A stretch of 64,000 nucleotides of DNA, from NCBI RefSeq assembly GCF_947242115.1, contig NC_074716.1, positions 24,176,637 to 24,240,636 on the forward strand, read 5' to 3'. Positions 24,750-64,000 of this stretch are shown one piece after another; the stretch's first letter is position 1, and every line of letters begins with the position of its first letter. This DNA is from Biomphalaria glabrata (lineage: Eukaryota). The notes below the pieces were generated by a model. It worked only from the letters and a program-made list of their open reading frames with translations. It was not told where the DNA came from and did not search any database. A program made the position numbers and the translations under genes.

Positions 24750-25815
24750 ACATTCCTCGCTTTAAAATAAATAAATCTCTTACTTGAGCCTAATTTTTCT
24801 AGGCTACATACTATGGGCTAATGAATTTTTGACCCAGAGAGCTCAGAGGGTTAGGGTAAACAATGTTATATCTAATGAACGCATAGTTAACACAGGGGCG
24901 CCCCAGGGGGCTGTGACATCGCCATTGTGGTTCATTTTGTACACCAATGATTTTCGATCCGATAGTTCTTGTTGCTCCTTCACAAAATTCGCTGATGATG
25001 CGGCTCTTCTTGCCCTGCTCTCAGAGAGCTCAGACGTAAATGAGTATTTCAAAGAATTAGAACACATTGAAGAATACTGTAAAGATAATTTTTTATTATT
25101 AAATGTAAAAAAAACCAAAGAAATGATAATCGATTTTCGCAGGGACAAGAAGGAAAATGATATTGTTTCTGTAGCTGGAGAGACTATTGAAATTGTGCAA
25201 ACCTTTAAATACCTTGGTACTATCCTAGACAATAAACTAAATTTTACTGCAGATACTGATTATATCAGCAAAAAAAGGGCAGCAAAGATTACGACTACTA
25301 AGAAAACTGTCCTCGTTTAATGTTAGCGAAAAGGGCTTGGCTATGTTTTATCACGCTCACATCTGCAATATTTTCAGTTTCAATATCACTGCCTGGTATG
25401 GCAATCTGAGCATTAAAAATAGGAATAAACTTAATAGAATCCTCAATGCTGCTGGCAAAATCATTGGCAAAAAACAAACCCCATTTGGGCAGTTGTTTGA
25501 GACAAACATCTATAAAAAAGCTAACAAGATCCTCGAAATAAAGAATCACCCTTTGTCTCAGGATTTTGTGATTTTACCATCACAAAAGAGATACAAGACA
25601 CCGATAGCAAAGACAAACAGACACAAACACTCTTTTGTTCCCCTGGCAATCAAATCATTAAATAAGAACAATCTGGTATAAACTTTGTCACATGTAAATT
25701 ATGAGTGAGTCTGGTGTGAATGTACACTTTGGTTTCTTATAGTTATAATGTTTTTTGTTTGGTGTAATGCACAAATTGTAAGACAAATTTCCTTACGGAT
25801 AATAAAGATTATTAA

Positions 25816-30794: not shown

Positions 30795-32637
30795 GTGAGA
30801 TTTGTTTTCACTGTTCATGTCACAGTAACCATTCTACCCACCAACCCTTGCCAATACTGTATCATATCTATCCAAGAGGCTCAGTGTTTGCTACAGAATA
30901 TATGTTTCTAGAAATGAGTATCATAGTTGCACAGACAGAGGCCACCTTCATATTTTTATTCACATAACTTCTTTATTAGATAAAACAAATTGTTAAATTA
31001 AAAAAAAAAAGTCACCAGTTTTAAACTCAAACATTAATTTTTTTTACTTGTGTCGTAGTTTTTATTATTTAAAAAATTGTAACCATTAAAAATTTACAAT
31101 AAATTTTTATAACAAAATTCCATAGCTTTAAAAAATGTATGTTTCTTACACGCTACACAATAAAATTCTTCTCTCATTATACATTATCTGTTATGCTTTC
31201 GTAAAATTATTTTTGTACAAATGTCTTAATGAAATGAAAGTTTGCAAGCTAGATGGTTTACCTTTTTATTTGTAAAGTTCTGATTGATAGAGCAAGAAGA
31301 AATTGGGGGAGGAGTGGTGAGGCCTATCTTACCTATTGGAATCAGTATTTTAGAATGAGCTAAGTGTGTTGAAGTGTGGACATTAGAATTCAACATTTCT
31401 CTTAAATTCTGTACACCTAGGAAAGTGAAGGAAAACAAGGTTCTCATTGTTCATTGTATAATGATTACATGTTTTTTTTTTTAAATATTGTAGAATGTAA
31501 CTGGTCTTTAGAATGGGAAGTACATTGCTGTCTTAAGTTGATAGAATAATAGATGGTTAGTTTGAGTTGCTAATGCATTTAAGGTGACTATTTAATTTTT
31601 AGTTTAACATGTTGCTGTTACACAGAAGGTTTCCAAAATGATAGAGTAGACTACCCTCTGACACTGGTTTGCCTTAGCTTCCGACCTGTCAGTTTATCAA
31701 TGGGATCTCCAGGGGTTATTGTATTTAGATTTGTTGAAGACAAGTTGCAATGACATTAATGTTGTCACACATCTTAGATTGGAGGTTACAAGGTCACATT
31801 AGCATACTGCAGTGTTTCACATGTGTACCTTTCTTTTCATGTTCTTCCCTCTTCATGCCTAAAGCAGAGCTGCTGCTTTGTCTTGTCTTGTTGTTGTTGT
31901 AATCTAAACTTGATATACTGGACTTGGCTTTTCTGTATCCAGGCTTATGGTAAATTACATTTCAGTAACTGTTTTGATATTAACTAAAAACTGAATTCTA
32001 GTTGGTTAGATTTAGTGGTTGTAATGCAGTGGTGCTAGTCTGAACACAAGTTGTGTAAACTGGATTGTTGATCTTTAATATTAGGGAACTCTAAATTCTG
32101 TGTTATTTATATTGTCCTTTGAAGGAATTAATGACCAAGATAGCGTTCCAAAGAAATGTTATTGTATTAGTCAGTCCTTGAAAATTTGTATGGTATATTA
32201 TGACTTATTATTTTAAGTTTAATTTTTTAGGAATTTTTTTTTTTCGGAGACCCAAGCTAAAAAGAGATTTAATTTTACTTACAGCATAATTATTCCTAAA
32301 CATATTTCAAGTATATGTTATCTACATAGCATATAATCTACATAGAAAATTCATTAATTATAAATATTTTAAAGTAGTTATTTATTGGTCCTTGTATTAT
32401 ATTGTTTGAATTTCAATATTAGTTTAGCTTGCTTATAGTTATCCTTTTATTTGAACACTATAATTAAATGTAGGTAGTTTGCCAGTCTGTTAATGGATTA
32501 GCTGCTAATTTTGTGTTGTATTTATAAAATTGACTTTTAAATCTCTATGCATTTTACATTGGCTCAATTTCATATATACCAGAAATAAGTTAATGTCTTG
32601 CATAAACTTTTCATGGACTTGCATTGATCAAAAGACT

Positions 32638-33130
32638 CTTCACCATTCCCTCTGGTCTCTTCCCTCAGCTCCCAACCCACCACCATTCCCTCTGGTCTCT
32701 TCCCTCAGCTCCCAACCCACCACCATTCCCTCTGGTCTCTTCCCTCAGCTCCCAACCCACCACCATTCCCTCTGGTCTCTTCCCTCAGCTCCCAACCCAC
32801 CACCATTCCCTCTGGTCTCTTCCCTCAGCTCCCAACCCACCACCATTCCCTCTGGTCTCTTCCCTCAGCTCCCAACCCACCACCATTCCCTCTGGTCTCT
32901 TCCCTCAGCTCCCAACCCACCACCATTCCCTCTGGTCTCTTCCCTCAGCTCCCAACCCACCACCATTCCCTCTGGTCTCTTCCCTCAGCTCCCAACCCAC
33001 CACCATTCCCTCTGGTCTCTTCCCTCAGCTCCCAACCCACCACCATTCCCTCTGGTCTCTTCCCTCAGCTCCCAACCCACCACCATTCCCTCTGGTCTCT
33101 TCCCTCAGCTCCCAACCCATCACCATTCAC
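32638..33130. repeat. 40-bp minisatellite x about 12 (caccattccctctggtctcttccctcagctcccaacccac)
   Basis: Near-perfect tandem copies. It generates the stop-free 220-aa and 173-aa ORF artefacts with 40-aa protein periodicity (3 DNA units). Confidence 0.95.
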
Positions 33131-34308
33131 TCTGTCTCGGCATGATGTTTGTTTTTAATCAAAGTTATGAATGTCTACAAATTGATACATGAACCTACAT
33201 TTTGTATGCCCATTCTTAGCAACTTGTAAACTTCATTTCATTCTAAACTGGGCTGACAGACAGCATGCATTTGTTTTGATTTTAGTTTTGAATCAATTTA
33301 TTATCAATTAAAAATACTTAAAAATCTGCTATGTTGGAAAGCTGTTTCAAAATTCTCTTATCAGTTGACTATTTCTTTGAAATAATAACCTTATGTGCTG
33401 ATATTCCCTTGCTGAAAAGGATGTTATATCAATTTTTTTGAAAGCGAATGTTCACTCAATAAAGCTTTGCTTTAGATTCTCAGATTTACTGATTGTGATT
33501 TCTTTTAAAATTTGCATAAAAATACATTGTCAAATAATTTCTACTTGTTACACTTTGTTTTGTTAAATCACTATAAAGTACAGCCATTCCACATCATCTG
33601 TTGATAAAAACACTTTTAACAAAATCGTTTTTTTTTTTTTACATTTTACATTCTGATTAAAAATGAAATCTATGGCCATATAAGTTGACTTTCCCGATAA
33701 GCCTGATCATGAACTGTGTATTGCATATACAAACGTATCCATTATTACTATGTCCACTAATCACATGTTCTGGTGTAGGGGATGATTAAACATCTCTTGA
33801 TTTGTAATCTATTTTACTCTTCTCAATTGATATAAACTTTTTCAAGGTCATTTAAATGCTTACATCTTTAAATAAAAAAAAAGACAAAGATGATGACATT
33901 ATTTTTTGTTTCACTCATAAATTTCAGATTTTATTTGACCTCACCCCAACAGCAAACTCAGAGTTTCAGGTACCATCAATGTAGACCAGATTTTTATCTC
34001 CCTTTAATTTCCTTTTTTCTCACATTGATGGGCCATCTTTGACCTTTGACACCTACTATTAATATATATAATATATCTATATAACTGTTTGGCTTGGACA
34101 CTAAAGCTGCATAGAATTTTACTGTTTGCATAAAATGTGTGTGTTTTTAAAAAAAAAAATTTTAATTAAATGCCAGCCTAGGCATGACTGTAACTATTTC
34201 CAATCTATAATTTAAAGCCTGCCAACTCTTCTCTTAGAAAAGCTTTGTTTTTCATGACTAACTGTAAACTCTCATTATTGTAAAAAATAGCCCACTGAGA
34301 TGTATAAA

Positions 34309-51187: not shown

Positions 51188-51278
51188 CTGGTGCTGGTGT
51201 TGGGTAATAGACAGGCATCATCATAGGCACTGGAGTGGTGTAGGAATAACTAATGATATTGCTCTCAATTGGAGCCTG
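51188..51278 (-). CDS. TOLLIP: TOLLIP exon 5 (linker)
   Basis: Acceptor actttcag|, donor |gtatca. Encodes QAPIESNIISYSYTTPVPMMMPVYYPTPAP(G); Pro/Met-rich like the human linker. Confidence 0.7.
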
Positions 51279-52779: not shown

Positions 52780-52941
52780 CTGTACAACAGAAATGCTCAA
52801 CCGACCAGCAAAGTTAGATGAGGACATGACATGACCAGCTTGTTGTTGTGCCTGTAATGCCCTGGCAATTCTTTCATCCTCCTGTTCTTGGGTCAGGGCA
52901 GGTCCAGTGCGGAGAAAATCAGATGGTAGTTCACCAACCAT
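52780..52941 (-). CDS. TOLLIP: TOLLIP coding exon 1 (ATG at 52941)
   Basis: Encodes MVGELPSDFLRTGPALTQEQEDERIARALQAQQQAGHVMSSSNFAGRLSISVVQ, aligning with human [20 protein letters not shown]...VGRLNITVVQ. Donor |gtacta on the minus strand. Confidence 0.85.
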
Positions 52942-54609
52942 AACCTAATTTAAATTTGGAAAGCATTTTACAAAATTGTAAGTTAGTTGAACTAACAAAG
53001 CCCATACATGCCAATATAAAACTTTCACACTTTAAGGTTATTTCAAGGTTATTTTCTTCCATACTGCATCTAACCAAAGAGACTTAATTGTAATTATCTT
53101 CTCCTTTAAGTAACATATTTTATAATTTATAAAATAAGATTTTAAGAAACCAAACAATTTGCATTATATTAAATCATCAGTACAACAAAAAGTATTATAA
53201 TTAACGATATGATACTAATTGTCATAGATCTTAACTCCAATATTTGCAGATACACGGTAATGCTAAAACTTGATAACCAAATATATATATATATATTAGG
53301 GGTGCGTCCGGAGCCAGATATGACAGGATAGTAAAATTTGATATTCGGCCGGAGCCGGATACCTAAGTGTCTTGTTAATAGCTTGTGTTGCTGAACATTT
53401 TACGAATCTGTTAAATATCATACATATATTTGTTGGTTTTATTATTTTTTTGCTTTTATATACCTTATTGTTTTAAATATATTAGTTGGTTTTATTTTTT
53501 TTTCCTTTTATATACCTTATTGTTTTAAACTCTGTTACTAATTGATTTATTCAAGCTTTACAGTATTTCTAAAAATCTGTATTGCATGAGTGTTTCTTTT
53601 GTGTATGTACGATGCCACCAAATGTAAAGGCTGTATGTGGGAGGGTCAATGTAAAATATGTTAGTATACATTTAACTAGTTACTAATGTAAATCTCTCAT
53701 AAGTGAAGTGCAATCTGCCTTTAATAGTGGTCGGATGTATGTGTTCATTTCAGACCAACAGCCTGGTCAGATATACCTAGTGAGCCTACACATGTAGTCC
53801 TAGTGTAGTGTGTATAGCTGTTTGTGTTAACCATCAAGCATTGTTTTTTCCTTGAGCATATACATGCAATAGAGTTGGGTGTCAGTCAAAAAAGATAACA
53901 TATTGGCATGGTCAGTCAAGCATATAAATAAATTATACCCGTCCATGAGTTAGAGGTCAAGGGTTGTTGTTTTTTACGCTCCAGCATATTGTTTCTTTGT
54001 TTGCTAGATCTAACTGCGGTACTATTATTCAATTTATTTTATGCAATTTTAAAATTTACTGTAAGGTTTTCTGTTATTTATTAAGTCAAAAGAATTAAAC
54101 AATGAAATTAGCCTTCTTTCTATAAAGTTTTTAATACAAGGCAAAAAATACACACACGCAAACATGCACATCTTTGTTTTATTTTATTGTGCAAAGAACA
54201 TACGTTAGAAATATTAAATGCAAAGAACGTATGTTAGAAACATCTTCCTTAATTATTACTTATTAATTATTTTATTCATGGTTTCAGTAACTGTTACAAA
54301 AGGGAACAATAGTAAGCCTATGGATGTCAGGTGTGTAAATGTCATCCTAGCCTGATACACAGTGGCTATGTACGCATCTTAAGTAAAAAAAAATAGAAAT
54401 AACAAGGAGTTAATTGACTTTCACATATTATTAAGAATATTGTTATCAAATCAAGACACTTAACTGCAGGAGTAATATTCAAGTTAACACGTTAGAAAAA
54501 TTATTTAACCGTAATATTTATTGACTGTGTAATATCCTATGTTGGCACGTTGTGTTTTTTAAAATTCTGGCTTCAAATGGTCAATGTCTATCAATAGAAT
54601 GGGTATCAA

Positions 54610-54975
54610 GGACCAAAGAAATAAAATAAAGAGTAGGGGGTGTTAAGCTCTCCATTTAAAGATAGCCCTGATCGTGTCTTCTACAAAATAATTAGTTACT
54701 GGCTTACTGGGCTACATAATCTCGTGGTTTGTGTTCTGTGTAGCTAAAGGTCATTCGTTTAGGTGTGTGTGATCTTTAGTCCAGCTTACACACACCAAAG
54801 AAAAAAAATAAAGAGTAGGTGGTGTTAAGCTCTCCATTCAAAGATAGCCCTGGTCGTGTCGTCTACAAAATAATTAGTTACTGGCTTACTGGGCTATATA
54901 ATCTCGCGGTTTGTGTTCTGTGTAGCTAAAGGTCACTCGTTTAGGTGTGTGTGATCTTTAGTCCAGCTTACTAAT
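54610..54975. repeat. About 185-bp tandem duplication (x2) inside the DNA transposon
   Basis: aaagaaa..aaagagtagg(g/t)ggtgttaagctctccatt(t/c)aaagatagccctg...tgtgatctttagtccagcttac is repeated head-to-tail at about 90% identity. Confidence 0.8.
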
Positions 54976-55089
54976 TGAGATTTATGTTCAAGTAACTCGG
55001 CACACTTGAAAACCGAACCATGTGATTCAGATTTTTCTCCAAATAAGCCAATTCTTTGTCCGGATACCAGTGTAGATGTTTGGCTTGAA

Positions 55090-55700
55090 GTCCAGCCCCC
55101 CCTCCCCCCAATTAAGATTAACTACTAAGTAAACAAACCTAGTTCCCTCGTGTGACCTCTAAAGAGTGCTTACGTCCATCGTATCTGACTTGGGGTCACC
55201 TGTCAATCAATGAACTCAATGTGATGGACTAAACAAATAAAAGGGGGAGGGAGTTGTTCATCTGGAAATATACCTAGTTTCCTTAGGTGGCTCTTGTAGT
55301 CCAGCCCCCCAATTAAGATTACTAAATAAACAAACCTAGTTCCCTCGTGTGACCTCTAGAGAGTGCTTATGTCCATTGTATCTGACTTGGAGTCACCTGT
55401 CAATCAATGAACTCAATGTGATGGACTAAACAAAGAAAAGGGGGAGGGAATTGTTAATCTGGAAATATACCTAGTCCTAGTTACCTTAGAGGTGTGGCTC
55501 TTGTAGTCCAGCCCCCCTAATAAAGATTAACTACTAAGTAAACAAACTCAGTTCCCTTGAAAGGTGTGACCTCTAGTGAGTGTCAATACGCTGACATTAA
55601 ACCTACGTCCATCGTATTTAACTTGTGGGCACCTGCCTATAAAAAAAACTCAATGTGATGGACTAAACAAATAAAAGGGGGTGGGAGTTGTTCATCTCTA
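55090..55700. repeat. About 208-bp tandem repeat (x3) inside the DNA transposon
   Basis: Units begin cagcccccc..aattaagatta(a)ctac..aaacaaacctagttccctcgtgtgacctcta.agagtgctta.gtccat.gtatctgacttgg.gtcacctgtcaatcaatgaactcaatgtgatggactaaacaaa.aaaagggggagggag. Confidence 0.8.
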
Positions 55701-56470
55701 CCTCTGGAGTTATACCCGCACAGCTAGACAGACGTCTGGTCAGCATGACGTAATCAAGGAATGTAGCATTTTAACATGTTAACTAACCTACTCAAAGGTC
55801 AAGACAAATTGAAAAAATGTGCTAGCCATTGCTGCTCTGTACGTAAAGTGCATTTATGATGTAAAGTATCATTTCTATTAAGACGCCTTGTATTTATAAT
55901 AAACGTTGTTTCGTGTAAATTCATAATGTAATGGCTCTATTTTTAAGCACATTATTTTGTTTTTTAAATTAAAATATAAACATTAATACATTCTACAACA
56001 GACATTAACGGAACGAGGTCCACTTTATGCATATTAAATAGTTGTACTTTTTACAATTCTGTAGTGATATCCGGGTGGAGCCGAATATCGCCGGATAGTA
56101 AAAAATGCCGGTTATTCGACAGAAGTCGGAGCGACTATCCGGTGCACCCCTAATATATATATATTTATATATAGATCTATATTATATATTATTTTCAATT
56201 ATTTATTAAAAATAGAGAAAACTTGCAGAAATCATGAAAATGATCAGTTTCTATTGATTTGTGTCTAATACTAACACAGTAACAGTCTATCACTGTCTAA
56301 GTCTAAGGTAGGATCCCAGTAAGAACTGTATTTAAATACCTTAAAAAAAGTTTTTAAGTAGTAGGCCTAATAGAAATCTAGGTTAAATTTTCTTATTTTA
56401 TAATTTTTATATTCCCCAATATTCTAACCCAACAGTTACAGTCACATCATGATTACCCATATCCTACTTT

Positions 56471-56487
56471 GTACACTGGCAGTGTAC
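56471..56487. other. Hairpin motif GTACACTG-g-CAGTGTAC followed by TTTTTCAAAAA (copy A)
   Basis: Perfect 8-bp inverted repeat, related to the copies at 56829 and 57979. Confidence 0.6.
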
Positions 56488-56828
56488 GTTTTTCAAAAAC
56501 TTATATAAAAAAAACTATTAAAGTTTTTTCTATTTTTTCTTTTGTTTTCATTTAAGAACATGTTTGTCCACATTTTGCCACTGCTGTTTGACTTTTACAA
56601 TTGCGTTTTATTATTTTATTGCGCATGAAAGTGACAACATTGTCAAAAATTGAAAAAAATGAAACCAATTCGGAAAATGTAAGTAATAACACATTTATAT
56701 AAATATTTTCAAATAAAACTAATTGATTTAGAAACATAAAGTATCCTAGTATTATAATTAATTAATAGATTTAAAATTTATAGCATGGTCTTTTCAAATT
56801 TTAATTTTTTGTAACGTACACTCCCAGT

Positions 56829-56845
56829 GTACATGGCAGGATATG
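56829..56845. other. Hairpin motif ACGTACACTcccAGTGTACAT (copy B)
   Basis: Shares aCGTACACnnCCAGTGTACAT with the copy at 57975-57997. Confidence 0.6.
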
Positions 56846-57978
56846 CCACTGTAGGAATCAATGACTGATATATGAATCAAAATAGATCAAGACTTCATTT
56901 AGAACATAGATTTGCTTGTTTTAACCAATATTATCATATATTATTGCTATACAACATACATACCATTATAATTGCAAATTATAGAACTAATTATGATGAT
57001 TATAAGGTTATTATTTGAAAACATATAAACAATAATATAATAATTCCTTTTATATATTTTCTTTCTTTTTGTTTTATTTTACTTCATGCAGTTCTCCTAG
57101 GCTATAGTATTTTAACTGACTGCTTAGAAAAATATTGGTCCCATTAGCAAATTATAATACTATTGATGTATGGTTATGTGAAAAAAAAATTATAATAATA
57201 ATTATAGATATTTATAATATTTTTTAGGGTCTCAAGTAAATATTAACAGTTCACAATGTCATCATTAAGAATCAAGATGAGAACCTGATATCTAATAGTA
57301 AATAAATGAATTAGACAAAAGCATGATTGAGTTTCAGTGACATTAGAATCTTATAATTTGTTATTAGGACCTTGTGTTATGTCATAACATAATATGTTTA
57401 CCTCTGAGACACCGTTATTTATTATGTATTCTTATTTTTACAATTTAGTCACAATTTAGTATAGCTAATTAGCAGAGCTAATATCACGAGGGAATTGAGT
57501 CTATAGACTTTATCAAAGCTAACAAACTTGAAAATGCCAAAATTATGACTGTGACCCAATGAAAAGAATTAGAAAAAAATGGAATTTATGATTATTACAT
57601 AACTGATAAGCATATAAATATACGAATATACGAGCATATAAAGGTATGTTTGGTTCAACCGCACTTCAAATATTAAAATCTTTGCTTATGGACATGATCT
57701 TTGAATATCTCACTATTGTACATTAATTTGTTGTTGTAAAAAATATATCTGGATAGTACTGGTTAGTACCAGATAATGTTGTACATTTGATGCCTATTTT
57801 TTTACTATATTGTAATAATTTTTTAGTAAAAAAAGCATTAAAATATACTTTTTTTTTTTGCGTTAAAATGCTTAATTTGTGTGTTTTTCAATGTTATTAA
57901 CTATTCTGTTTTCACTTAAAGATTGTAAAAAAAAAATATTTTTTTTATATATGTTCCTCACGGGCCACTTCCTGCTAC

Positions 57979-57995
57979 GTACACCGCCAGTGTAC
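57979..57995. other. Hairpin motif ACGTACACcgCCAGTGTACAT + TTTTCAAAAATTC (copy C), about 105 bp upstream of the RTE ORF ATG
   Basis: Shares the 5' part with copy B and the 3' part (CAGTGTAC..TTTTCAAAAA) with copy A. Confidence 0.6.
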
Positions 57996-58099
57996 ATCTC
58001 ACAGAATTTTCAAAAATTCTTTTTGCAGTGTCTTAGTTTGACAAGACAATAATATATTCAGGACATGACAAGGAGCACATTGGTGGTGTAGGAATCATC

Positions 58100-60814
58100 A
58101 TGTCTAAAATAGCAGCTTCAGCGCTAATTGCTTGGAAGCCGATCAGTGACCGCATCATTACAGCTCGACTCCAAACAAAGGAAATTAAAGTCACTACCAT
58201 CCAAGCTTATGCCCCTACAGAGGATGCAGAAGATACCATCAAAGATCAGTTCTATAATCAACTACAAACCACTCTTGATGAAACACCTACTCACGACCTA
58301 ATTCTACTGATGGGAGATTTTAACGCCAAAATCAATCCCAACCGAACTGGCTTTGAATATGTAATGGGACCATATGGCTCTGCAGAAAACATCAGTGATA
58401 ATGGCGAGCGTTTGATTTCTCTCTGCACATCCAACAGCCTTTCAATTGGAAACACATATTTTAAGCACAAACAAATACACAAAAAAACATGGCGATCACC
58501 AAATGGGGAAACCTTCAACGAGATAGATTACATTTGCATCTCCAAACGATGGAGGTCATCTCTGTTAGACGTGCGGACCCGCAGAGGAGCTGATATCGGC
58601 TCAGACCACTACCTTGTCAGTGGCAAATGTAAGCTCCGATTGAAACGCCAACCAAAACGAGCCACACGACCCCGCCCATTTAATGTAGAGAAGCTTAAAG
58701 ACGGCAATACTGCAGCACAGTTCCAATTGAAACTAACGAACCGCTTTGAGGCTCTTGCAGATATATTGACCCTTGAAGAAGAGTGGGCCAACTTCAAAGA
58801 TACCACTATTGGGTGCGCAGAAGAAGTTATCGGAAGGAGGCGAGGTTCATACAAGAAACGGTGGATACAAGACAGAACATGGAAATTGATAGATGAGAGG
58901 AAAGAGGCCAAACGTAGACGAGATCAGAAAAATGAAACACAGGATCGCAGCCTAGCGGAAGAAGCCTATAGGGAAGCAGATCTGAAAGTAAAGAGAAGCT
59001 GTCGGCAAGATAAACGGGACTGGATTGAGCAGAAGGGACAAGAGGCACAAGCAGCTGCAAGCAGAAATGACACAAAAACCCTCCATCGTATTGTCCGAGA
59101 TCTCACTGGAGCAAAGAGTGGACATGGGGCACCAATAAAAGACAAGCAAGGCAAAACTTTGTTAACGAAAGAAGAACAGGATGCAAGATGGGTAGAGCAC
59201 TTTAAAGAGACCCTTAACCAACTGTCGCCAGACATAACTTACATATTCAAGGACCCCTCTCCAGACAATGATCTCAAGGTCAAGACAGACCCAATAACTG
59301 CTGAGGAGGTTACCATGGCCATTGCAGTGCTAAAGAATAACAAAGCACCAGGACTAGACATGATATCAGCAGAAATGCTAAAATATGGGGGACAGTGCAT
59401 TGTTAACAGAATGACTGATCTCTTAAATCTCTGTTGGCGAACTTCAAAAGTCCCAGAGGACTGGCAAAAGGGAGTGATTGTAAAGCTTCCAAAAAAGGGC
59501 AACTTGGCAGACTGTAACAACTGGAGGGGCATTACTCTCCTCTCTGTCCCAGGCAAAGTTTTCAGCACTGTTTTGTTGAGACGGCTTCAACAGTCTGTAG
59601 ATGAAAGGCTCTGAGAAGAACAAGCAGGTTTCCGAAGAGGCAGATCATGTACAGAGCAGATTTTCGTTTTACGAAATATCATAGAACAAAGTTTTGAGTA
59701 CCAACAACGGCTAACGATCAGTTTCGTGGACTTCAAAAAAGCGTTTGATAGTGTCCACCGAGAATCACTATGGAAAATAGTTAGAGAATACGGTATACCA
59801 GAAAAATTCGTCCAGATCCTACGACACCTTTACAGTCAGTCTAGTTGCTGCATTAAAACAGAAGAGGGAACAACAGAGTTTTTTACAATCGAGACAGGTG
59901 TGAGACAGGGGTGCATCTTATCTCCCTTCCTTTTCCTCCTAGCCATCGACTACATAATGAGGAGAGCAATGAACCAGACTGCCTTTGGTATTCCATGGCA
60001 TGAACAACTCCGATTGACGGACTTGGACTTTGCTGATGATGTTGCACTACTCGGGGCTACAAATAAATGCATTCAAGAAATGACGGAGAGCCTAGACAGA
60101 GAGGCACCCAAAATTGGCCTCCGCATAAACTTGGATAAGACTAAAATTATGCGAGTGGGATATAAGGCAAAGGGTGTCCCCGTCAGACTTGGCGAGTCAA
60201 AGCTTGAAGAGCTGGACAAGTTCACGTACCTTGGCAGCATCATAACAAATGATGGAGATGCTTACCATGATGTAGCGTGCCGAATAGGAAAGGCAGGGAG
60301 CATTTTCCAAAGGCTGCAGCCTATTTGGACTAGCCAAGCCATTGGACTCGAGACAAAAATACACCTTCTCAACACAATCGTCATTCCAACTGCTACATAT
60401 GCATGTGAGACGTGGAAGTCATCTGTCAAAATTGAGAAAAGACTAAATGTGGCTCAACAGAGATGGCTGAGACGGATTTTGGGAGTCAGTTACACAGACC
60501 GGATCTCAAACAAGGAAATCCTTTGCCGAACTGGGAGTCGAACACTTAGTGAGGTTGTGACTGAGCGTCGCATGAGGTTTGCGGGACATGTTCTACGTCA
60601 AAATGAATTACGCACACCAAGAGTTGCGATAACATGGAAGCTAAAACGAGGAAAGCGCAAACAGGGACGTCCTCGTATTACCTGGCGACATACCTTCATG
60701 GAGGACCTCAGAACAGTGGACACCAGATGGGAAGAGGCTTCAGACATTGCCAGTGACAGATCATTATGGAGACAGCTTGCCGCCCAATGCGCCGAACGGC
60801 GCGGGAGGACCTAA
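58100..60814 (+). pseudogene. RTE-like pol ORF (about 905 aa) interrupted by one in-frame TGA at 59612-59614
   Basis: ORFs 58100-59614 and 59726-60814 are in the same frame (both frame 2). The only interruption is a TGA between the endonuclease/linker and the RT domain. Confidence 0.7.
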
Positions 60815-60959
60815 GTCTAAGTCTAAGTAAGTTTGACCAATAGAAATTTATATTTAATAGAAAATTTATATTTAATGCAGTAATAAAGTTTTGGGGGTTA
60901 ATGGGTTAAGTCATGATTATTATTAGACTTCCAAGATTAATTAGATATATTAAAATTAA

Positions 60960-61080
60960 ATAGACAAGATCTAATCTAGATCTAGAATAGATAAGATCTA
61001 GAACTTGAGTACAATAAAAAAATAATCTAGGAGTCTAGACGCTAGACTCTAGATCTAGAATAACCTAGATTTACATTACT
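60960..61080. repeat. TCTAGA-rich palindromic block
   Basis: Motif composition as above; about 130 bp downstream of the RTE stop. Confidence 0.7.
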
Positions 61081-61129
61081 ATTCCTCTATGGTAAAACTT
61101 CCCATCAAAGGCCCCTAGTTTTTCAAGTC

Positions 61130-61260
61130 AATTATTTGGCAGCTGTCTATCCGCATGTATGATGACGTAGTGACGTGACCTTACCTGCCCACACGCGCTC
61201 TACTAGCAGAGCGCGCCCGGTCACTGGTCCCTCTCTCTCTTTCCTCTTTTAGTACGGTAA
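61130..61260. promoter_or_regulatory. GC-rich promoter-like segment with tandem CRE half-sites (TGACGTAGTGACGTGAC) and a 7-bp-stem hairpin GCGCTCTactagcAGAGCGC
   Basis: It is directly visible and bracketed by TCTAGA blocks. GTGACGTAG recurs at 20590. Confidence 0.3.
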
Positions 61261-61647
61261 ATCTTAGATCTATGTAATATAGATTTAGATTTTTTTCTAC
61301 AAATTATTCTTGGAATAATATTAATGTTTAGATGGTATTTTATGTTTTTAATTTGGGAATTTTAATTAATATATTATTAATTAATTAATTATAGACTTAC
61401 GTATCTTTGCTAAAAAAAATAAAATAATAAATCTAATCGTGTGTTAACTGTTTTGTTTATTTTAAATACATATTTAAATAAATTTTTTCTGCCCTCGTTT
61501 TTTTTTAGATTATGACTCTCCGATTGAATCATTTTAACAGGATAATAATAAGCAAAGCATAAGTTTTAAAAAAATAATATCTAAAGATACAATGCCATAT
61601 TTTAGAAGAAAGATGTAATTTTATTTTTCTACTTTAAAAATAGCCAG

Positions 61648-61745
61648 TAGTGACCTTGTGACCTGATTACTGTAGCGATAGACAGCGCGGTGCTGCCACT
61701 TGTGTAACATTCTTCAAAAGGGTCCTTCGATGTAAAGTTTTACCC
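61648..61745. repeat. Short dispersed repeat copy 2
   Basis: See 49137-49232. Confidence 0.7.
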
Positions 61746-61794: not shown

Positions 61795-61905
61795 ATTAGT
61801 AAGTATTAGACTAGAATCTAGATAAACTATATCTAGTCTAGATATACTATACTAGTATAACTAGATCTATAGATCTAGTATCTATAGGTCTAGCTCTATT
61901 CGGTA
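61795..61905. repeat. TCTAGA-rich palindromic block
   Basis: Motif composition as above; with 60960-61080 it brackets a GC-rich about 700-bp segment. Confidence 0.7.
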
Positions 61906-63096
61906 ATAGTTTAGATACGCAGATACCTTTGCCGACCACCGTGTTGTTTGTTAACAATATTTATCTCCCTTACCTATATTGAACTTTCAATAACTTTTTT
62001 TAAAGAGAGTTTTTGTTCTTATGCTGTCAACTTATGATTTTTTAAGTGTATTTACTGAAATGAAGGTCTAAATAAAATGTTATTAATAAATTGATGAACT
62101 TGTTGTTTCTTCTTTTTTTTTTCTACTTATGAAATTATTAATTAAAAAATATGTGTTAACAATTAGATCTATAATTAATATATTAACTCACCAAGCAAAG
62201 CGAAATAATGATAAAATAAAAAAAACAAATATGCATGAATTAAATGAAATGAAACACGCATCTATATATACATGTTATGTTTAATTTTTATTTTTTTTGA
62301 ACAAAATTATGCATTATGACTTAGTGATCTTTTTAGAGCAATGACAATAAATGATGTAGATCTAGTACGGGAAACTTATTACTATAAGAAATAATACTTT
62401 TATGTTTATCTGTTGATGATTAAGACTACAGTTAGATCTATACATTTCTAACGAATTTTGAGCGCTCTCTATTTTCGTAAAATCACACCACGAAGAGAAA
62501 GAATTTTATGAAGCTGACACAGATCAGTGTCCCTTTCTCTTTCGCCGTAAGGTCTTCTGAGTGGAGTCTACTGTCTACCAGAGATTTTTTGGCGTGTGTT
62601 TTATGATCAGATAGGACTAATGTCTGTGTTTATAACTCTTACCACTACATCTGGCTCCACTTCTCTTGGAGGGAGGATAGGTCGAGTGTAACTAGATCAC
62701 GAACGTCTTTGTTAAACGTTACGTAGCACCTGTTAAACTATCATGTTTCACAATCTGAAATTTACTTTGCGTAGAGTGGGGAACAAAAGCCAATGTATAA
62801 AGAAACAGGTAAGAAGCATATACACTACTATTTAGATAATTTATGCATCTTTACTTTCGGAGTTCATTAAAAAAAAACAACTCCTCACCTATTACACTAA
62901 ATTTGTTTAAGATGTGTAGTTGTGTGTGTGTGGGGGGGGGGTAGCGACTCCACCTACCAACCCTTCTCTTCACATGGATCCACTAGCGCCCATGTATTAC
63001 ATTCCGTTACGGATTCCAAATCAAGTTTTTCTCTCCCGCCGTACCGTACAGGTGGCGATTGTCTCCATTTATTCTTACGTACCTTTAAACCCTAGC

Positions 63097-63258
63097 TGCG
63101 CCGGCCGTCACACGCGATCTTTGTCTTTACGGCAGAACTAGGTGTGATGTAATCACCTTCCCCTGTTCGGAGCTTCGCTGCGCCGGCCGACACACGCGAT
63201 CTTTGTCTTTACGGCAGAACTAGGTGTGATGTAATCACCTTCCCCTGCTCGGAGCTTC
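63097..63258. repeat. 81-bp GC/CpG-rich tandem duplication (x2)
   Basis: gctgcgccggccg(t/a)cacacgcgatctttgtctttacggcagaactaggtgtgatgtaatcaccttcccctg(t/c)tcggagcttc is repeated head-to-tail. Confidence 0.9.
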
Positions 63259-63473
63259 GCCGGCGCCGTGGTCATATTAGGTCATCTACTGCTAGGATCG
63301 CTGGTATGCTCATAAAGGGAGAAGGGCAAGGTACGGTGTTTTACTTGGTCAAAATTTATCCTTCTTCGCTTTCTTTGTCGGTTCGTTTCACCGACATGCA
63401 GTTCAACTGAGGTCTAGTCGGATGAGACTAAGACTGAAACGTGATGCAACATAAACCATGTCACGATCAAAAC

Positions 63474-63612
63474 TCTCTTGGTTGTATCCTATAATGTCGG
63501 CCAGCTTGTACAGATAGTTATGTACGACAAAAACTCCCGTGGTTGGATCATATCGTGTTGGCCGGCAGTCTATAAGTAGTTACATCAAGAAGTAGTTATG
63601 TATGACAAATAC
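63474..63612. repeat. About 65-bp imperfect tandem duplication
   Basis: ctcttggttgtatcctataatgtcggccagcttgtacagatagttatgtacgacaaaaa is followed by ctcccgtggttggatcatatcgtgttggccggcagtctataagtagtta...gtagttatgtatgacaaa. Confidence 0.6.
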
Positions 63613-64000
63613 ACTCTGATTGTCATAGAGTCTAGTCCCCCTCCCCTATTTGGTCCACAGAAGTAGTGACATAGTATTTTTATCTTGAAGCTCTTTCATC
63701 TCATTAAAGAGATTTGATAAAGCCTTTGATTTTCATCGCCCCATCCCTATTTGGAGCCATCACAAGGTTACTAACTGTGATGCCATTGTAACATTTCCCG
63801 AATCTGTTATAAAAGCAGTTCCCTTCCACTCTTCAAGCCTATCATTACTTTCTCTACCTTGTTGTAGATATTGTTTGTTCTTATATTGTGCATTGTTTTT
63901 CATTCAATATGATTATAAGTTACCTTACAAAATAAGATAGAAGGATAAAGAACTTGTACTTATAGCTACCATATTTTTTTTTAACAGCAGCATATGGAGC

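Follow-up and report, generated by a model that had tools for sequence, protein, structure and literature searches.

What is the noncoding unit bounded by inverted repeats that lies next to TOLLIP exon 2 in Biomphalaria glabrata, the snail vector of Schistosoma mansoni, and does it bear on the promoter of this gene, a regulator of Toll-like receptor signalling? Within the window—the whole 64-kb stretch of DNA analysed—the unit sits in a TA tract and occupies 53297-56152 (2,856 bp), which replaces the limits of 53295-56162 given in the preliminary description. Its features and immediate surroundings are as follows.

52780-52944, minus strand: TOLLIP exon 2 (V-MVGELPSDF...SVVQ), starting after the acceptor ttaaattag
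53281-53296, no strand: left flank (AT)8; its last 8 bp, 53289-53296 (ATATATAT), are a candidate target-site duplication
53297-53305, plus strand: left terminal inverted repeat, the exact 9-mer TAGGGGTGC
53297-53362, plus strand: left subterminal region, CpG-rich, with motifs TCCGGAGCC, CAGGATAG, GCCGGAGCC and CCGGATAC and a gapped alignment to the reverse complement of the right end
53424-53529, no strand: internal tandem repeat, 52 bp x2, 94% matches
54612-54971, no strand: internal tandem repeat, 182 bp x2, 95-96% identical
55073-55710, no strand: internal tandem repeat, three units, each about 197-237 bp long, with a mean column identity of 79%
56061-56152, minus strand: right subterminal region, CpG-rich, with CCGGATA at 56068 (minus), 56091 (plus) and 56136 (minus), GGAGCC and GTCGGAGCG
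56144-56152, minus strand: right terminal inverted repeat, GCACCCCTA as read on the plus strand
56153-56164, no strand: right flank (AT)6; its first 8 bp, 56153-56160 (ATATATAT), are a candidate target-site duplication

The ends of the unit are defined by a short and locally unique inverted repeat. The exact 9-mer TAGGGGTGC is found only twice when both strands of the window (128 kb of strand) are read, once at each end of the unit; the copies are inverted relative to each other, and each adjoins one of the nine (AT)n tracts of at least five repeats present in the window, two of which are the unit flanks. When the window was scanned for exact inverted 9-mers with an identical 8-bp flanking direct repeat, only the unit and one AT-rich chance pair came up. 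The perfect terminal inverted repeat (TIR) measures 9 bp, or 11 bp when the flanking T/A bases are counted; past the 9-mer it continues for about 65-90 bp in a degenerate, gapped form with CCGGATA-type motifs. The TIRs of about 70 bp described earlier are perfect over only 9 bp, the remainder amounting to 54 matches over 94 gapped columns, and the best block of 22 nt is offset by 20 nt between the two ends.

How long was the target-site duplication (TSD)? An 8-bp ATATATAT duplication fits the flanks, and lengths of 2, 4, 6, 10 or 12 bp fit them equally well; the ambiguity already pointed out thus stands, since both flanks are (AT)n. The phase of the AT repeat is nevertheless informative. If the termini are symmetric, a left flank ending ...TAT (or ...ATA) faces a right flank starting ATA... 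(or TAT...), so that no direct repeat of odd length can exist. Among the three superfamilies that had been left in contention, hAT and Tc1/mariner fit an even TSD, but PIF/Harbinger, with its 3-bp TSD (TWA), is barred by this phase. PiggyBac and Kolobok were also rejected: the flanks read ATAT/ATAT, neither junction carries TTAA, and the termini are not of the CCC...GGG type.

The similarity of the two ends extends inwards. When the 9-mer is left out, the gapped inverted-repeat alignment of the subterminal ends has z = 4.15, a score that was not attained once in 3000 shuffles or in 3000 genomic segments of matched GC; without gaps, the local score of the ends is equalled by 2% of random window pairs. 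The two 130-bp ends contain four CCGGATA motifs, and both orientations are represented, in agreement with the repeated subterminal CCGGA motifs first noticed there. Sites resembling CCGGATAG number 16 in the window against 8.5 expected, five of the 16 being inside the unit ends. The observed-to-expected ratio of CpG is 1.2-1.5 at the unit ends versus 0.32 for the window, which is compatible with a fairly young insertion.

The interior of the unit consists of unrelated sequence and includes three arrays of tandem repeats. Both of the modules reported at the outset exist, with periods of 182 bp (x2) and about 197-237 bp (x3) instead of 185 and 208 bp, and the array of 52 bp x2 is additional to them. 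There is no coding capacity, as had been claimed: a single reading frame holds 68 stops, no open stretch exceeds 62 codons, and six X-masked frames of the unit contain no Pfam domain. No transposase remnant was seen inside the unit, a regular expression for the hAT C-terminal motif found nothing in six frames of the whole window, positions 52900-58200 match no Rfam family, and the tRNA scan found no tRNA. With inverted-repeat ends that abut (AT)n and a noncoding body, the description of the unit as a non-autonomous, TIR-bounded (class II) element in a (TA)n tract is upheld. A comparable architecture is known from the mollusc 'pearl' elements, bivalve families of oysters that are TIR-bounded and noncoding, carry internal arrays of about 150-200 bp and have been linked to the origin of satellite DNA; the resemblance is one of layout rather than of demonstrated sequence kinship.

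To which superfamily does such an element belong? The TIRs of hAT elements are short, about 10-25 bp, and start with (C/T)A(A/G)NG. The first bases here, TAGGG, conform to this pattern, and TAGGGGTGC is exact at both ends. The candidate duplication ATATATAT also agrees with the Ac TSD consensus nTnnnnAn. Non-autonomous hAT elements and MITEs such as Ds (of Ac/Ds), dTph1 and Mar have in common a short TIR starting (C/T)AG(G/A)GG. Mar, a Drosophila family of the Buster group, has the terminus CAG(G/A)GGTAGGC and an 8-bp TSD (PMC3517528); the corresponding terminus here is TAGGGGTGCGT. ATATATAT likewise matches nnnTAnnn, the TSD consensus that this paper gives for Buster (PMC3517528). As in non-autonomous hAT elements, an 8-bp TSD is compatible with the flanks, subterminal repeats occur in both orientations, and the noncoding body implies mobilisation in trans; compared with hAT MITEs, however, the element is far larger (2.86 kb), and its interior consists mostly of tandem arrays. 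The medaka hAT element Tol2 has termini CAGAGGTGTAAA at both ends (also CAGAGGTG) as against TAGGGGTGCGT here (PMC4818426), a similarity that ends after the first ~8 nt, and unlike our element Tol2 is autonomous and encodes a transposase. In the part of that source which cites Urasaki 2006, Tol2 transposition is stated to depend on the repetitive subterminal region (PMC4818426).

The composition of the host genome points in the same direction as the termini. Among the 133,439 annotated pieces of DNA transposons in B. glabrata, 120,466 are assigned to hAT and 2,303 to Tc1-IS630-Pogo, and MuDR and Harbinger are represented by zero annotated elements (PMC10903818). The hAT-like terminus, the exclusion of odd TSDs and a hAT share of about 90% of these pieces together make hAT the best guess, and we think it likely, though by no means certain, that the stretch 53297-56152 represents a single copy of a class II DNA transposon that moves by cut-and-paste, is non-autonomous and belongs most probably to the hAT superfamily. 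An autonomous relative would then have provided the transposase in trans; this enzyme would bind the short TAGGGGTGC termini and the subterminal CCGGATA/CCGGAGCC repeats, excise the unit and integrate it by a staggered cut, duplicating 8 bp (ATATATAT) of the TA microsatellite. Points against this reading are the 9-bp length of the perfect TIR, the range of TSD lengths that the microsatellite admits and the lack of any hAT transposase or remnant in the window.

An origin in another superfamily with an even TSD is unlikely but is the strongest of the alternatives, with Tc1/mariner as the main candidate and MULE or P-like elements (8-10 bp TSD) as further possibilities. Tc1/mariner elements insert at TA, and the target here is compatible with this preference: a TA duplication with the element taken as TTAGGGGTGC...GCACCCCTAA or as GGGGTGC...GCACCCC restores a perfect (AT)n, the corresponding limits being 53296-56153 or 53299-56150. 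Starts of the TTAGG type are presumably known in mariner ends such as those of Hsmar1/MADE1. The ends of Tc1/mariner elements, however, normally consist of a well-matched TIR of more than 20 bp, and those of their non-autonomous derivatives are usually far longer than the perfect TIR seen here; in place of a well-matched stretch of about 20-30 bp the unit has 9-11 perfect bp followed by gapped similarity. The genome census weighs against these candidates as well, with the 2,303 Tc1-IS630-Pogo pieces facing 120,466 of hAT and with no annotated MuDR or Harbinger element (PMC10903818).

Further copies of the unit were looked for. A blastn search of the window (word size 9) gave self-matches and the internal tandem repeats only, and no second copy is present in 23 kb of B. 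pfeifferi or 12 kb of Bulinus. Six-frame open stretches of both ends had zero matches at E <= 10 among 5.8 billion proteins. A 58-aa stretch of the left end retrieved two low-complexity matches from 1.84 billion representatives, which we judged to be due to chance; one of them, P0243, is a tandem-repeat protein that has only 'ISCHLW' in common with the left-end stretch. Likewise attributed to chance were two metagenome matches of 19-22 nt to the 19-nt left end, one of them in compost DNA of 55% GC. No match was obtained in prokaryote genomes with a 33-nt right subterminal stretch, or in viral contigs with both ends. The metagenome, viral, prokaryote and protein collections and the snail segments searched in this way contain no Biomphalaria genome. 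A literature search for the terminal sequence brought up primers and telomere motifs only.

Comparison with related snails shows the site without the element. The sister species B. pfeifferi is collinear with the window, at 92.7% identity over 13 kb, as far as 53292, where the alignment stops inside the (AT)n tract, 4 bp short of the left terminus; at the insertion site it has an uninterrupted (AT)6. This empty site is clean at the left junction only: B. pfeifferi lacks the whole 8.45 kb of 53293-61744, that is, the element and a further 5.6 kb on its right (56153-61744). The B. pfeifferi 16-mer that adjoins (AT)6 on the exon-1 side has no match in the window, so that the right-hand junction does not permit a clean match. 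TOLLIP intron 1 exceeds 11 kb here, as against about 750 bp in B. pfeifferi and about 1,090 bp in Bulinus truncatus, and the short intron in both relatives identifies the long one as derived. At the far breakpoint of the 8.45-kb difference (61744/61745) there is a transposable-element terminus too; the presence of such termini at both homology breakpoints favours insertions in this genome over a deletion in B. pfeifferi. The view of the insertion as derived and not ancestral is borne out by the short introns of both relatives and the intact (AT)6 of B. pfeifferi, and on the strength of these alignments the insertion can be placed in a B. glabrata-like lineage, later than the split from B. pfeifferi. 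It did not act alone: the element, a 5'-truncated LINE and two MITE-like units are lineage-specific and together expanded intron 1 from less than 1.1 kb to more than 11 kb. A protein search with the reverse transcriptase of the neighbouring LINE gave best matches of at most 63% identity, none of them from Biomphalaria.

The same comparison bears on the improbable case that there is no mobile unit at all, and that the 9-bp inverted repeat arose as a by-product within the 8.45-kb indel (53293-61744), itself the outcome of a different insertion, a rearrangement or a deletion in B. pfeifferi. That B. pfeifferi misses the full 8.45 kb, well beyond the 2.86 kb of the unit, would agree with this, as would the failure to find further copies in the sequences searched (no Biomphalaria genome among them) and the 2% of random pairs that equal the ungapped end score. 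A by-product would not, however, be expected to consist of a 9-mer that occurs in 128 kb of strand only twice, inverted and each time at (AT)n, nor to be flanked by subterminal regions whose gapped similarity is reached by zero controls; a random deletion would not be expected to have transposable-element termini at both of its breakpoints, and the intron of the outgroup Bulinus is short as well.

We return, then, to the non-autonomous transposon and its position relative to TOLLIP, which had been given as the promoter region. The distance of about 355 bp to the ATG at 52941 holds, but this ATG is not the annotated start codon: it is Met28 of the annotated TOLLIP protein, and GTT ATG is preceded by a splice acceptor (ttaaattag|GTTATG), conserved in B. 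pfeifferi, and by an in-frame TAG. Annotated Biomphalaria and Bulinus TOLLIP proteins start MAASNGVTS...RNQ-V-MVGELP, and a 26-residue exon 1 is present in all annotated planorbid TOLLIP proteins, including those of B. glabrata, B. pfeifferi and Bulinus. This exon 1 (MAASNGVTS...RNQ) is absent from the entire 64-kb window and thus lies more than 11 kb upstream, past the window edge; an exact look-up of the exon-2 ORF returned no record. The acceptor before the ATG, the identity of the ATG as Met28 and the location of exon 1 outside the window make the element intronic, and the promoter placement is abandoned: judged from the gene structure, the element is within TOLLIP intron 1, 353 bp upstream of exon 2, and any promoter at exon 1 is over 11 kb away. 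Transposable elements can in principle provide alternative promoters, and an in-frame ATG (52941) lies 356 bp from an element with CpG-rich ends, but it is highly improbable that the TOLLIP promoter draws on the element or is displaced by it, for instance with a shorter isoform beginning at this ATG, given the 26-residue exon 1 shared by all annotated planorbid proteins, the conserved acceptor, the remoteness of exon 1 and the occurrence of the same exon 2 in B. pfeifferi and Bulinus without the element.

The element is ordinary genomic debris, and its present effect on TOLLIP is most likely a longer intron and nothing more. Its significance is small and consists in a correction of the gene model, in which exon 1 lies upstream and the element becomes intronic. 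Intact transposase was not found in the B. glabrata genome by Adema et al. 2017, and its DNA transposons were described as not being recent invaders (PMC5440852), a point against the transposon reading preferred here. Against this report, activity of B. glabrata DNA transposons after the split from B. pfeifferi would be worthy of attention; we consider it doubtful, though conceivable, that the element and the neighbouring insertions record such activity, that the insertion is polymorphic and that it alters TOLLIP splicing or expression. Were the insertion polymorphic in B. glabrata, it would provide a marker at an innate-immunity gene and a hint of recent hAT activity. Intron 1 itself has grown more than tenfold through lineage-specific insertions of transposable elements.

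The 2,856-bp non-coding element at 53297-56152 is bounded by exact inverted 9-mers that adjoin AT repeats, which bears out the preliminary description of an inverted-repeat unit in a (TA)n tract. Its parts, read from left to right, are the following.

53281-53296: left flank, (AT)8, directly before the left 9-mer
53297-53305 (+): left terminal inverted repeat (TIR), TAGGGGTGC, read from the sequence
53424-53529: tandem array, 52 bp x2, inside the element
54612-54971: tandem array, 182 bp x2, 95-96% identical, inside the element
55073-55710: tandem array, three units of ~197-237 bp, inside the element
56144-56152 (-): right TIR, the reverse complement GCACCCCTA, read from the sequence
56153-56164: right flank, (AT)6, directly after the right 9-mer

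An exact search finds just two occurrences of TAGGGGTGC on both strands of the 64-kb window, where (AT)>=5 tracts number nine. Scanning the window for exact inverted 9-mers with 0.3-10 kb spacing and identical 8-bp outer flanks returned nothing besides one AT-rich chance pair and the element itself, recovered in five registers because its flanks are an AT repeat. Past the 9-mer there is no clean TIR: the best ungapped block between the ends (22 nt, 82%, 53340-53361 against 56068-56089) is displaced by 20 nt, and its local score is matched by 2% of random window pairs. Aligned globally with gaps, the left 70 nt and the reverse-complemented right 92 nt share 54 matches, and the end similarity without the perfect 9-mer (z = 4.15) was equalled by 0 of 3000 shuffles and 0 of 3000 GC-matched genomic segments. 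Since the ends align only with gaps and offset, the TIRs of about 70 bp proposed initially reduce to 9 perfect bp, the remainder being, by ungapped, gapped and control alignments, a degenerate, indel-ridden subterminal inverted region. The two ends have in common GGAGCC/CGGAGC motifs, CCGGATA in four copies and both orientations, and, at 53310-53336 and 56077-56103, a direct repeat of 27 nt. Their observed/expected CpG ratio (53297-53426 and 56023-56152) is 1.2-1.5, against 0.49 in the interior and 0.32 in the whole window; the ends are mostly spared the CpG depletion affecting their surroundings. The claimed lack of coding capacity holds, with open stretches of at most 62 codons, 68 stops in a single frame and no Pfam domains in six frames; Rfam and tRNA scans at the element found no families or tRNAs. 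The two tandem modules described before (185 bp x2 and 208 bp x3) exist, but with periods of 182 bp and ~197-237 bp, and are joined by the 52-bp pair.

Which superfamily could have produced such an element? The AT-repeat flanks are compatible with direct repeats of 2, 4, 6, 8, 10 or 12 bp, and their phase makes odd-length target-site duplications (TSDs) impossible, assuming symmetric termini. Of the hAT-, Tc1/mariner- and PIF-like origins first entertained, the even TSDs fit the former two, while PIF/Harbinger is ruled out by the phase along with other superfamilies with 3- or 5-bp TSDs. The absence of TTAA from both junctions likewise rules out piggyBac and Kolobok. Tc1/mariner ends are usually longer and better matched than the inverted repeat seen here, and membership in any superfamily other than hAT appears unlikely. 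hAT transposons such as Ac/Ds and Tol2 combine a short TIR with short subterminal repeats in both orientations, a layout that the element shares. Its terminus TAGGGGTG matches the hAT start pattern and is similar to the ends of Mar, CAG(G/A)GGTAGGC, which has an 8-bp TSD with the consensus nnnTAnnn (PMC3517528), and of Tol2, CAGAGGTGTAAA (PMC4818426). Of the 133,439 DNA-transposon pieces annotated in the B. glabrata iM line, 120,466 are hAT and 2,303 Tc1-IS630-Pogo, and none belongs to Harbinger or MuDR (PMC10903818). Flanks, terminus, layout and the hAT share of the annotation together lead us to favour, with some reserve, a non-autonomous hAT transposon, an assignment that is probable but unproven.

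That the element is not a mobile unit at all seems decidedly improbable; the transposon reading is well supported. No second copy was found in the window, in two planorbid loci (the B. pfeifferi TOLLIP locus L001, GCA_030265305.1, and that of the outgroup Bulinus truncatus), in three contig collections, or by two translated-ORF searches of large protein collections. Its absence elsewhere in ~100 kb says only that it is not among the very abundant families; several short repeats, unlike the element, are common to the window and L001.

Tblastn with human TOLLIP as the query places the TOLLIP exons between 52944 and 50273 on the minus strand. Joined by eye on the window sequence, they encode a protein that matches B. 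glabrata TOLLIP A0A2C9JMZ2 at 99% identity, which marks the window as Biomphalaria, glabrata-like. The element had been assigned to the TOLLIP promoter region on the assumption that the ATG at 52941 is the start codon. Annotated TOLLIP of B. glabrata, B. pfeifferi and Bulinus truncatus, however, has 26 extra N-terminal residues (MAASNGVTS...RNQ) before V-MVGELP, and the GTT ATG codons in the window have an upstream acceptor (ttaaattag) and in-frame TAG, because of which this ATG is Met28, within exon 2 (52780-52944). Exon 1 is absent from the whole window at the protein and DNA level. With exon 1 beyond the window and the ATG behind a splice acceptor, the promoter placement is refuted, and the element lies 353 bp upstream from exon 2, within intron 1. 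A tandem acceptor (cag/CAG) of exon 5, at ~51265-51275 (-), accounts for two B. glabrata UniProt isoforms differing by one Gln (302 vs 303 aa). The PGMAP repeat of exon 6 varies in unit number and sequence among the window, B. glabrata BB02 and B. pfeifferi.

L001 aligns with the window from 53292 down to 40118 (92.7% identity across 13.4 kb), ending within the (AT)n tract 4 bp short of the left terminus. In gene orientation, the B. pfeifferi sequence is ...gtaaatgga-(AT)6-ttagttttcaag..., and that of the window at this point is (AT)6-element-(AT)8-ttggttatcaag. B. pfeifferi thus has (AT)6 without the element, but this empty site is one-sided, clean at the left only, the right junction having no clean match. 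Homology resumes at L001 10306-10449 (window 61898-61745), and from the positions of these blocks 8.45 kb in the window correspond to 30 bp in B. pfeifferi; the far breakpoint coincides with the end of the 654-bp MITE-like unit listed below, and the 5'-truncated non-LTR retrotransposon and the ~388-bp unit of that list fall in the 8.45 kb as well. Beyond 61898, homology to B. pfeifferi intron 1 is lost again in the window. Intron 1 exceeds 11 kb in the window, compared with ~750 bp (B. pfeifferi) and ~1,090 bp (Bulinus); because both relatives have a short intron, the short state is ancestral and the long one derived. Serial insertion in the window's lineage appears much more likely than a single deletion in B. 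pfeifferi, since both breakpoints fall on transposon termini. The preliminary description caught a real structure and overstated it. What it describes is an unremarkable insertion into an intron, specific to this lineage, by a defective DNA transposon. Two points are mildly interesting, the more than tenfold growth of intron 1 and the apparent youth of the element when set beside the description of B. glabrata DNA transposons as not recent (PMC5440852).

Further repeats in the window are these.

56458-56845: ~388-bp unit, 33-nt inverted repeats (88%) around the near-palindrome GTACACTGGCAGTGTAC
58037 to ~60930 (+, antisense to TOLLIP): 5'-truncated non-LTR retrotransposon (LINE), two long ORFs with APE, RVT_1 and DUF6451
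61091-61744: 654-bp MITE-like unit, 26-nt TIRs GGTAAAACTTCCCATCAAAGGCCCCT and reverse complement, 85% complementary
61899-64000: sequence with no match in the 5' portion of B. pfeifferi intron 1
24775-25678 (+): second reverse-transcriptase fragment, RVT_1 (E = 5.6e-11), then an ALKBH8_N-like stretch
32509-33189 (+): tandem repeat, ~40-aa unit, ~5 copies, seen in ORF translations only

The right end of the MITE-like unit is the exact point of renewed homology with B. pfeifferi intron 1, and a 77% similar piece at L001 14519-14615 indicates that the family is common to both species. The ~388-bp unit probably represents another small TIR element family; a third copy of GTACACTGGCAGTGTAC lies 1.1 kb onward (57977-57997), directly before the LINE. 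The APE domain of the latter starts at profile position 76 of 225, and the closest relatives of its proteins in a 5.8-billion protein collection, at most 63% identical, are metagenomic or belong to fishes, amphioxus and a nematode; none is from Biomphalaria. The stretch at 61899-64000, which contains a GC-rich 82-bp x2 tandem repeat (63095-63258), looks like a further insertion moving TOLLIP exon 1 past the window edge. The fragment at 24775-25678 is another degraded LINE. The repeat at 32509-33189 is open in three frames (units ...PSGLFPQLPTHHHSLWSLPSAPNPPPFPLVSSLSSQPTTI...), and the GC skew around it is strongly negative.
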